Positions 40,294-40,811 of a stretch of 64,000 bases of DNA are shown here, in pieces. Numbering within the stretch: position 1 is the first letter of the stretch; each line of letters begins with the position of its first letter. The notes under the pieces were generated by a model. The model saw nothing but the letters and a program-made list of their open reading frames with translations. It did not search any database and had not been told where the DNA came from. This DNA is from Escherichia coli (GTDB taxonomy: Bacteria > Pseudomonadota > Gammaproteobacteria > Enterobacterales > Enterobacteriaceae). Position numbers and translations under genes: made by a program. Location of the stretch: NCBI RefSeq assembly GCF_003334785.1, contig NZ_QOWV01000002.1, one strand, 5' to 3'.

Positions 40294-40491
40294 ACGGCGG
40301 AAAGGGCCGCAGTGGATAATACACTAACAGAACAATAATAACTCTCTTTTGCTTGACAAAAAGAGAGTTACTGGCGAGTATTGTCTCCGCTGAGACGCGC
40401 TTGCATTACTACGGTAATACAACCTGCTGGAAAGGCCGCGAACCGGACCAGCAACAAAAAACCGCCTGATTTTGGCGGTTTTTTGTTTTTT
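40294..40491. repeat. PAIR3 repeat copy A (~195 bp module with palindromic promoter core and terminator)
   Basis: About 80 percent identical to 40616..40811; shares the acggcggaaagggcc start, the 28-bp palindrome actctcttttgcttgacaaaaagagagt and the aacctgctggaaaggccgcgaacc...terminator end. Confidence 0.85.
40389..40491 (+). ncRNA. Candidate ~100-nt sRNA transcribed divergently from ryfA (repeat A); possible TimR-like antitoxin sRNA
   Basis: Perfect -35 TTGACA (40353-40358), 17-bp spacer, -10 GAGTAT (40376-40381); intrinsic terminator accgcc-loop-ggcggt plus T-run (40461-40491); no ORF. Confidence 0.35.
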
Positions 40492-40615
40492 AAAGGAAAG
40501 TGAATTTACATGTTTAAGTAATATCTTTTACCGGTTAGAATTTTTAATTTTGAGCAGGATTTGTTTATATTTGTCTGAATTCGGACTAATAAGCCAGGTT
40601 ATTTTATTACCGAAC

Positions 40616-40811
40616 ACGGCGGAAAGGGCCGGTGTCGATAATACGCTAAATAAACAATAATTACTCTCTTTTGCTTGACAAAAAGAGAGTTACTGGTGAG
40701 TATTGTTTTGCTGTGAAGCACCTGCGTTGCTCATGTAACACAAGTCAACCTGCTGGAAAGGCCGCGAACCAGACTAGCAATAAAAAACCGCCAAATTCGG
40801 CGGTTTTTTAT
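40616..40811. repeat. PAIR3 repeat copy B
   Basis: Second copy 322 bp downstream of copy A; central ~50 bp diverged, ends conserved. Confidence 0.85.
40710..40811 (+). ncRNA. Candidate ~100-nt sRNA (repeat B paralogue)
   Basis: TTGACA (40675-40680), 17-bp spacer, GAGTAT (40698-40703); terminator 40787-40811; body diverged from copy A. Confidence 0.3.

Follow-up and report, generated by a model that had tools for sequence, protein, structure and literature searches.

The question raised by the intergenic region between sseB (39223-40008, plus strand) and sseA (40826-41671, minus strand, stop codon at 40826) is what the two similar modules lying in tandem there are, and why a locus with one resident toxin gene has both of them. 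The region was analysed within a 64-kb stretch of DNA from a K-12-like Escherichia coli (the window, to which positions refer unless another genome or locus is named), in which positions 39950-40900 differed from strain MG1655 by a single base, at 40563. Both are copies of one half of the timP/timR (ryfA) type I toxin-antitoxin locus, the half that holds the control region and the antitoxin gene. As a whole, the explanation given below, comprising the identity of the modules, the mechanism of TimR, the roles of its two copies, the origin from a tandem and the reading of IS128 as a stump, is regarded as highly probable; the features are collected in Table 1.

Two direct repeats were returned by a repeat finder, one of 91 nt (40294-40384 and 40616-40706, 90% identity) and one of 64 nt (40420-40483 and 40746-40809, 84% identity), and whole-length pairwise alignment of module 1 with module 2 gave 88% identity. 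A first-pass annotation of this stretch had proposed two modules, at 40294-40491 and 40616-40811, with conserved ends, a diverged middle of about 50 bp and a closing hairpin flanked by an A-run and a T-run. The bounds were borne out by the repeat finder and the alignment, and such a hairpin was found in both modules; the divergence was likewise real, but the poorly aligned core was only about 35-40 nt long (40385-40419 versus 40707-40745, including a 5-nt indel). The terminators were called from the repeat finder, folding and published sequencing of transcript 3' ends (Term-seq), the plus-strand terminators of both modules being absent from a consensus promoter/terminator scan of the window.

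The RNA leaving module 1 leftwards is the mRNA of the toxin gene. A full-length match to Rfam family RF00126 (ryfA) was obtained at 40007-40310 on the minus strand (314.9 bits, E = 1.8e-88; gathering score 80) and the MG1655 ryfA annotation, 2653855-2654158, maps onto the same interval, both in agreement with the first-pass naming of the locus as ryfA. A Term-seq 3' end for ryfA/timP is listed at MG1655 2654157(+). Within this ryfA-type mRNA lies an open reading frame (ORF) of the TimP family, whose peptide scored 86.8 bits against the NCBIfam model NF040796 (toxic_TimP; cutoff 45). TimP is a Sec-dependent inner-membrane toxin (PMC7667032, PMC11228461, PMC13000454); in Salmonella, overexpression of timP is toxic and TimR represses its translation (PMC7667032).

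A divergent RNA of the TimR family is encoded twice, at 40389-40486 (proximal to timP) and 40710-40811 (distal). A TimR covariance model trained solely on sequences of O157-type E. coli, Citrobacter and Kluyvera, with none of the a- or b-allele sequences described below, gave full-length matches at exactly two places in the 64-kb window, namely 40389-40485 (100.7 bits, E = 6.6e-20) and 40710-40810 (94.1 bits). Both copies share the architecture of the TimR consensus fold (RNAalifold), which consists of a free 16-nt 5' seed, a 5-bp hairpin, an invariant hairpin CUGCUGG...CCAGCA and the terminator; compensatory changes were seen in three pairs overall, two of them in the 5-bp hairpin. The first-pass suggestion of paralogous RNA genes with different seeds held good, as both plus-strand RNAs matched the TimR model and the diverged 19 nt are the seed. 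The MG1655 timR interval, 2653356-2653455, maps to 40710-40809, i.e. the RNA of module 2; the curated MG1655 record annotates no feature over its module 1 counterpart, and no family in Rfam 15 covers the plus-strand TimR RNAs of the window.

Expression of the unannotated copy was seen in the published Term-seq tables for MG1655, where the 3' end 2653679(-), corresponding to window position 40486, appeared in three of three conditions with scores of 107,037, 48,011 and 208,460, under the sole label "antisense to IS128". The end of the annotated timR, 2653354(-) or window position 40811, was listed in one condition with a score of 34,005. Because its 3' end was present in all three conditions, the proximal TimR RNA is made and cleanly terminated in K-12. 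Short ORFs within the modules were set aside: the RNAs belong with a structured family that is non-coding, and nothing resembling a ribosome-binding context was apparent.

The two RNAs differ in the seed, and the seed points to different partners. The TimR target site in stem-loop 2 of the timP 5' untranslated region (UTR) forms a repeat family with both seeds, being identical as a direct repeat to the module 2 seed at 17 of 19 positions (89%) and to the module 1 seed at 14 of 19 (74%); its position agrees with the stem-loop 2/G76 site probed in Salmonella (PMC11228461). Seed and target are complementary in the window: 19 contiguous pairs (17 Watson-Crick and 2 G-U) join distal TimR to the resident timP, and 17 of 19 positions, three of them as G-U and with two mismatches, are paired with proximal TimR. 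Duplex energies restricted to seed versus stem-loop 2 were -42.6 kcal/mol for timP a with TimR a, -32.0 for timP a with TimR b, -42.6 for timP b with TimR b and -25.4 for timP b with TimR a. This comparison replaced the folding of timP with each small RNA (sRNA) at full length, which had given meaningless long duplexes. Seed and target co-varied in an alignment of 16 units drawn from E. coli, Escherichia sp. E1V33, two Citrobacter and Kluyvera. Alleles a and b and the O157 type differ from one another, a further form is peculiar to Citrobacter and another to Kluyvera, and the K-12-type proximal copy was the sole unit with a mismatched neighbour. Covariation of seed and target across species has been reported (PMC7667032, Fig. 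8), and no description of TimR alleles within a species or of the K-12 seed mismatch was found in the literature. Judged by these seeds, the distal TimR appears to be the cognate antitoxin partner of the single resident timP, while the proximal TimR carries the seed of another specificity allele, b, the commonest in E. coli. The predicted duplex of the proximal RNA with the resident timP is weaker by about 10 kcal/mol, which would make this RNA either a weaker back-up antitoxin or an orphan.

Two side observations concern the target and the alleles. In one Term-seq condition a weak internal ryfA/timP 3' end was listed at 40225 (MG1655 2653940, plus strand of K-12), which is the 3' foot of stem-loop 2, 4 nt beyond the TimR target site, and which may be a processing or pausing product tied to TimR binding. 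In E. coli EcPF15 (locus L002, 1250-1403) a third TimR allele with the seed GACGAGAUACACUUGCA and a non-palindromic, O157-like promoter follows a b/b unit and the spacer as an orphan, and no matching timP allele was present among the sampled loci.

The mechanism is known from Salmonella, where timP and the divergently transcribed TimR form a type I toxin-antitoxin pair: 18 nt of timP stem-loop 2 are bound by the 5' end of TimR, and this pairing blocks the pseudoknot-dependent, translation-competent fold of the timP mRNA (PMC7667032, PMC11228461, PMC13000454). By analogy, the 16-19-nt 5' seed of TimR would pair here with the loop of stem-loop 2 and prevent the pseudoknot-containing, translatable fold, so that the membrane toxin TimP would not be made; for K-12 and E. 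coli at large, the function of TimR and TimP is inferred from this analogy. The statement in the first-pass annotation that the transcript architecture is poorly described must be withdrawn: timP/timR has been characterised in the three studies just cited, both genes are annotated in MG1655, and a tandem form, ryfA1/ryfB1/ryfA2/ryfB2, has been published for Shigella dysenteriae (PMC5333039). The system is mostly already known, an ordinary characterised type I toxin-antitoxin locus; what is new is modest, namely an expressed TimR paralogue without annotation in K-12, its non-cognate seed allele, and the derivation of the K-12 locus from a full tandem. As an aside on the RNA fold, the loop of the invariant second TimR hairpin (GGAAAGGCCGCG; 40429-40440 and 40755-40766) is complementary, with one bulge, to the first 12 nt of the timP mRNA (GCGGCCCUUUCC; 40299-40310), and both sequences are invariant across four genera; this complementarity could provide a second contact helping TimR to disturb the 5' elements of the pseudoknot.

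How the second module arose can be read from strain LCP30S3_I5, which carries a complete tandem. Its first unit runs from sseB through timP-b, the palindrome and TimR-b to the spacer, and its second from a 93-nt partial sseB pseudogene through a terminator, timP-a, the palindrome and TimR-a to sseA. The window is collinear with this tandem save for a 357-nt gap that covers the remainder of the sseB fragment and the whole second timP down to its +17. At the left edge of the gap the window retains TTTATTACCGAACA, and in LCP30S3_I5 the sequence at this point runs on as the annotated partial sseB pseudogene and then the second timP. In addition, the window is a mosaic, with a timP stem-loop 2 of the a type next to a promoter and adjoining TimR of the unit-1 (b) type, the switch lying at the timP 5' end. 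The mosaic together with the gap therefore demands at least one conversion or replacement and one deletion. From this collinearity the K-12 form appears to descend from a tandem duplication of the unit sseB 3' end-timP-timR, in which a 357-nt deletion removed the second toxin gene and an exchange would have brought an a-type timP beside a b-type promoter and TimR. Decayed sseB, timP or sseA was looked for in the spacer at 40492-40615 and discarded as its origin, only the 14-nt sseB relic and a 16-nt timP 5' relic exceeding shuffled controls. Other arrangements were single a/a units with either promoter type (MRY15-117 and JCC-EE7), single b/b units (Survcare253 and E2865), and the b/b unit of EcPF15 followed by its orphan third allele lacking the palindrome.

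The frequency of these arrangements was estimated in 5,426 complete E. coli genomes. The timP body was found at 5,604 places in 5,426 genomes and the palindrome at 5,062 places in 3,454; the allele b seed was present in 4,546 genomes, the allele a seed in 2,021, timP allele a in 1,971, the spacer in 2,243 (1,582 at ≥99% identity), and the whole intergenic region at ≥99% identity in 1,516. The K-12 architecture is therefore present in roughly 28-30% of genomes and more than one timP in at most about 3%, and the duplicated unit survives whole in a few percent of E. coli as well as in S. dysenteriae.

Several points weigh against this account as a whole. A study in avian pathogenic E. coli (APEC), the one E. 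coli study of timR, reported little effect of timR deletion and no evidence of TimP production in E. coli (PMC13188913), and what E. coli offers on toxicity and repression is limited and in part negative (PMC13188913, PMC5333039). Both TimR start sites are placed by annotation, homology and promoter geometry, Cappable-seq tables listed no matching coordinates, and Term-seq scores are not abundances. The population counts are approximate, having come from short megablast queries that needed an exact 28-mer, and co-occurrence within a genome was inferred from totals and the 16 sampled units. Finally, the route from the tandem to the K-12 form takes at least two events, the order of which is conjecture.

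One alternative concerns the role of the proximal TimR, which on this reading is not an antitoxin for the resident timP, being instead an orphan whose targets are other mRNAs, in trans, or which neutralises an incoming b-type timP. With the resident target its seed has two mismatches, both among the first 8 nt, whereas with b-type timP the match is perfect for 16 nt; its Term-seq signal is strong. Two studies point the same way: the defects of an APEC ryfA deletion vanish when timR is deleted as well, suggesting TimR effects beyond timP (PMC13188913), and in S. dysenteriae RyfB1 is allele-specific, lowering RyfA1 and not RyfA2 (PMC5333039). Pairing at 17 of 19 positions, at -32 kcal/mol, may however suffice for repression, and the orphan role is possible, though doubtful. 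A broader proposal, that seed and target of timP/timR are specificity alleles recombining within E. coli and that roughly 30% of strains, K-12 included, would keep and strongly express an orphan TimR of the wrong allele, one that could act on other mRNAs in trans or silence an arriving b-type timP pre-emptively instead of being a redundant antitoxin, is put forward as a speculation to which only a tentative weight is given.

Table 1. Features of the sseB-sseA intergenic region in the window
Feature	Position	Strand	Description and basis
timP mRNA (ryfA, b4440)	40007..40310	-	Leaves module 1 leftwards; ends at the terminator common to sseB
timP coding sequence	40039..40164	-	41 aa, small toxic inner-membrane protein; RefSeq annotation; b4812 in MG1655
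TimR target site	40229..40247	-	Allele a site in timP 5' UTR stem-loop 2, plus strand GCTGTGAAACACCTGCATT; repeat family with both seeds, covariation
Module 1	40294..40491		First 17 nt of timP, divergent promoter region with palindrome, proximal TimR gene, terminator
Probable timP -10	40316..40321	-	TATTAT (minus strand), separated by 5 nt from the downstream annotated 5' end 40310; probable assignment
Palindrome 1	40339..40370		TAACTCTCTTTT-GCTTGACA-AAAAGAGAGTTA; perfect 12+12-nt arms, 40339-40350 / 40359-40370
timR -35	40353..40358	+	TTGACA, inside palindrome 1
Probable timR -10	40376..40381	+	GAGTAT, 17 nt past TTGACA and 7 nt before the start 40389; from geometry
Proximal TimR paralogue	40389..40486	+	Allele b seed GCUGAGACGCGCUUGCAUU; without MG1655 annotation; covariance model and Term-seq 3' end
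IS128, predicted RNA	40442..40650	-	Leaves module 2 leftwards; covers the AT-rich spacer, without the timP body; Rfam RF00125
Proximal TimR terminator hairpin	40453..40487		AACAAAAAACCGCC / GGCGGTTTTTTGTT; 14-nt perfect arms, A-run and T-run; Term-seq 3' end 40486
Relic of duplicated sseB 3' end	40603..40616	+	14 nt, TTTATTACCGAACA; identical to 39925-39938; left edge of the 357-nt deletion
Module 2	40616..40811		Start of a second timP (relic, ~17 nt), palindrome 2, timR promoter, distal TimR gene, terminator
Distal TimR	40710..40811	+	Annotated timR (b4811) of MG1655; allele a seed GCUGUGAAGCACCUGCGUU; annotation and covariance model
Terminator hairpin common to distal TimR (+) and convergent sseA (-)	40777..40814		19-nt arms, 95% complementary; A-run and T-run

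Transcription of the two divergent genes was examined around the palindrome. Within the window the 28-mer ACTCTCTTTTGCTTGACAAAAAGAGAGT has exactly two occurrences, 40341-40368 and 40663-40690, where none would be expected by chance; palindrome 2 has perfect 10+10-nt arms, and the 8-nt centre GCTTGACA is itself not palindromic. In module 1 TTGACA (40353-40358) stands on the plus strand and TTGTCA (40359-40354) on the minus strand, and the 28-bp palindrome centred on these hexamers was found twice as the first-pass annotation had described it. By its motifs each module appears to hold a sigma-70 promoter, TTGACA/17 nt/GAGTAT, driving a TimR RNA of about 100 nt, and CTTGAC and GA(G/A)TATT are kept in timR promoters across genera. 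The plus-strand starts predicted earlier, 40389 and 40711, lie no more than 1 nt from the annotated timR 5' end (40710) and its module 1 homologue (40389). On the timP side, 40310 is both the ryfA/timP 5' end of the annotation and the position where the Rfam ryfA model begins, and ATAATAC, which holds the complement of the probable -10 TATTAT, hardly varies among 15 loci of Escherichia, Citrobacter and Kluyvera; no good -35 accompanies it. The minus-strand start earlier placed near 40325 did not agree with the annotated 5' end, which fits the conserved TATTAT. Among the compared loci the palindrome was confined to the a- and b-type units of E. coli, and both it and the minus-strand TTGTCA were absent from the O157-type E. 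coli, Escherichia sp. E1V33, Citrobacter and Kluyvera loci. The earlier idea of one -35 box shared by both promoters is supported for timR, with its TTGACA, 17-nt spacing and GAGTAT, and is not supported for timP, and the palindrome is lineage-specific. The palindrome was also considered as a dispersed repeat and rejected, as it occurs only at this locus, at most three times per genome and never on plasmids.

If the palindrome centre nevertheless were the -35 of both divergent transcripts, minus-strand RNAs would start near 40325 and 40647. Both modules do contain TTGTCA, a 16-nt spacer and TATTGT on the minus strand, agreeing with 9 of 12 consensus positions and fitting better than the TATTAT promoter, the palindrome extends weakly outwards over ACAATA and TATTGT, and the Rfam IS128 model begins at 40650. 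The ends of IS128 given by Chen et al. in 2002 are, however, reportedly computational predictions. Such a bidirectional core would also put the timP start about 15 nt upstream of 40310, where annotation and the Rfam model begin, and the loci just named, which lack TTGTCA and the palindrome, keep timP and TimR as well as the nearly invariant TATTAT. The Salmonella numbering, in which the timP ORF starts at +145, places the start in the window at about 40308 (PMC7667032). A shared -35 is accordingly judged unlikely, though a second promoter that depends on TTGTCA may exist. A perfect 12+12-nt inverted repeat, identical in both modules and found in 3,454 genomes at this locus only, might alternatively serve as an operator through which a dimeric regulator switches timP and timR transcription together; no regulator is known, no search for a matching motif having been made, the palindrome is lineage-specific, and in Salmonella the timP mRNA was fairly high in every condition tested (PMC7667032), which leaves an operator quite improbable.

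The leftward output of module 2, IS128, matched Rfam family RF00125 in full length (262.1 bits) and is made up of 17 nt of timP leader followed by the AT-rich spacer. IS128 is best regarded as a stump left when the second toxin gene was deleted. That it is a functional sRNA in its own right, as the full-length Rfam match and its antisense overlap with the proximal TimR terminator might suggest, is very improbable given its make-up, the absence of any 3' end on its strand from the Term-seq tables in three conditions, the lack of a phenotype on overexpression (PMC4606813), and its restriction to some lineages, with phylogroups B2, D, E and B1 devoid of it (PMC3318445).

Further observations were made on neighbouring predictions and on loci elsewhere. 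C0614, an sRNA gene from older predictions, is placed by the Term-seq table 141 nt beyond the 3' end of the proximal TimR (downstream, about 40627 onwards, plus strand); as it overlies the palindrome and promoter of module 2, it probably reflects an early prediction error or a timR with wrongly drawn bounds. A scan of genome contigs for the invariant TimR motif returned 7 loci only. One of them is a 3-kb contig of a metagenome-assembled genome assigned to Phycisphaerae (L010, 1594-1613), which has the exact 20-nt enterobacterial motif and no ryfA match, probably through contamination or chance. In Salmonella enterica subsp. arizonae (L012, 1374-1700) and E. coli fS54a (L020, about 840-1000) the stem-loop 2 target is fused straight to the TimR seed, so that the leader of timP, the two promoters and the 5' end of the sRNA are missing; by its junction each fusion looks like a deletion by recombination between the 16-19-nt direct repeat of target and seed, and in fS54a a "hypothetical protein" is annotated over it. 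Insertion sequences (ISEcB1 of the IS3 family and IS1A) lie at different points of the timP-sseA spacer in unrelated strains, namely BL21(DE3) (L005, 3381-4738), 06-00048 (L006, 2920-4277) and PK8217 (L022, 449-1146), and the locus seems to tolerate or attract insertions.

These findings bear on how the locus is studied. K-12 is the reference strain for small-RNA work, yet its annotation misses one clearly terminated and apparently abundant RNA of the TimR family, and deleting "timR" in K-12-type strains removes just one of two candidate antitoxins. Work in B2 strains, such as uropathogenic E. coli (UPEC) and APEC, probably concerns the other allele. Two antitoxin candidates and allele differences could account for weak or inconsistent timR phenotypes, and the allele mosaic offers a natural test of the seed mismatches that pseudoknot-based repression tolerates.

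Compared with known systems, the locus is closest to timP/timR (ryfA/STnc2070) of Salmonella Typhimurium, which likewise lies beside sseB, encodes a toxin of the same family, has a divergent antitoxin gene that does not overlap the toxin gene, and uses a 5' seed complementary to stem-loop 2 (18 nt in Salmonella, 19 nt here). Salmonella differs in having one timR, with STM2534 between timP and sseA, whereas the window has two timR-type genes for one toxin, the adjoining one with a seed of the non-matching allele. The ryfA1/ryfB1-ryfA2/ryfB2 locus of S. dysenteriae is a tandem duplication of the same unit, in which the two RyfB RNAs share only about 60% identity, control of RyfA by RyfB is allele-specific and the 5-nt "variable region" of RyfA falls in the pairing site; it keeps both toxin transcripts, whereas the K-12 type has lost the second, leaving an extra antitoxin gene and the IS128 stump. 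Among other divergent type I systems, zorO-orzO/zorP-orzP, tisB-istR, shoB-ohsC and dinQ-agrB, with duplicated units, have the same gene layout as timP/timR, and in them the antitoxin 5' end also pairs far upstream of the ribosome-binding site. The TimR region gave weak, sub-threshold matches to the Rfam families ohsC, OrzO-P and AgrB, with no homology above threshold, and timP differs from the zor, tis, sho and din systems in relying on a pseudoknot switch and not on mRNA processing (PMC11228461).

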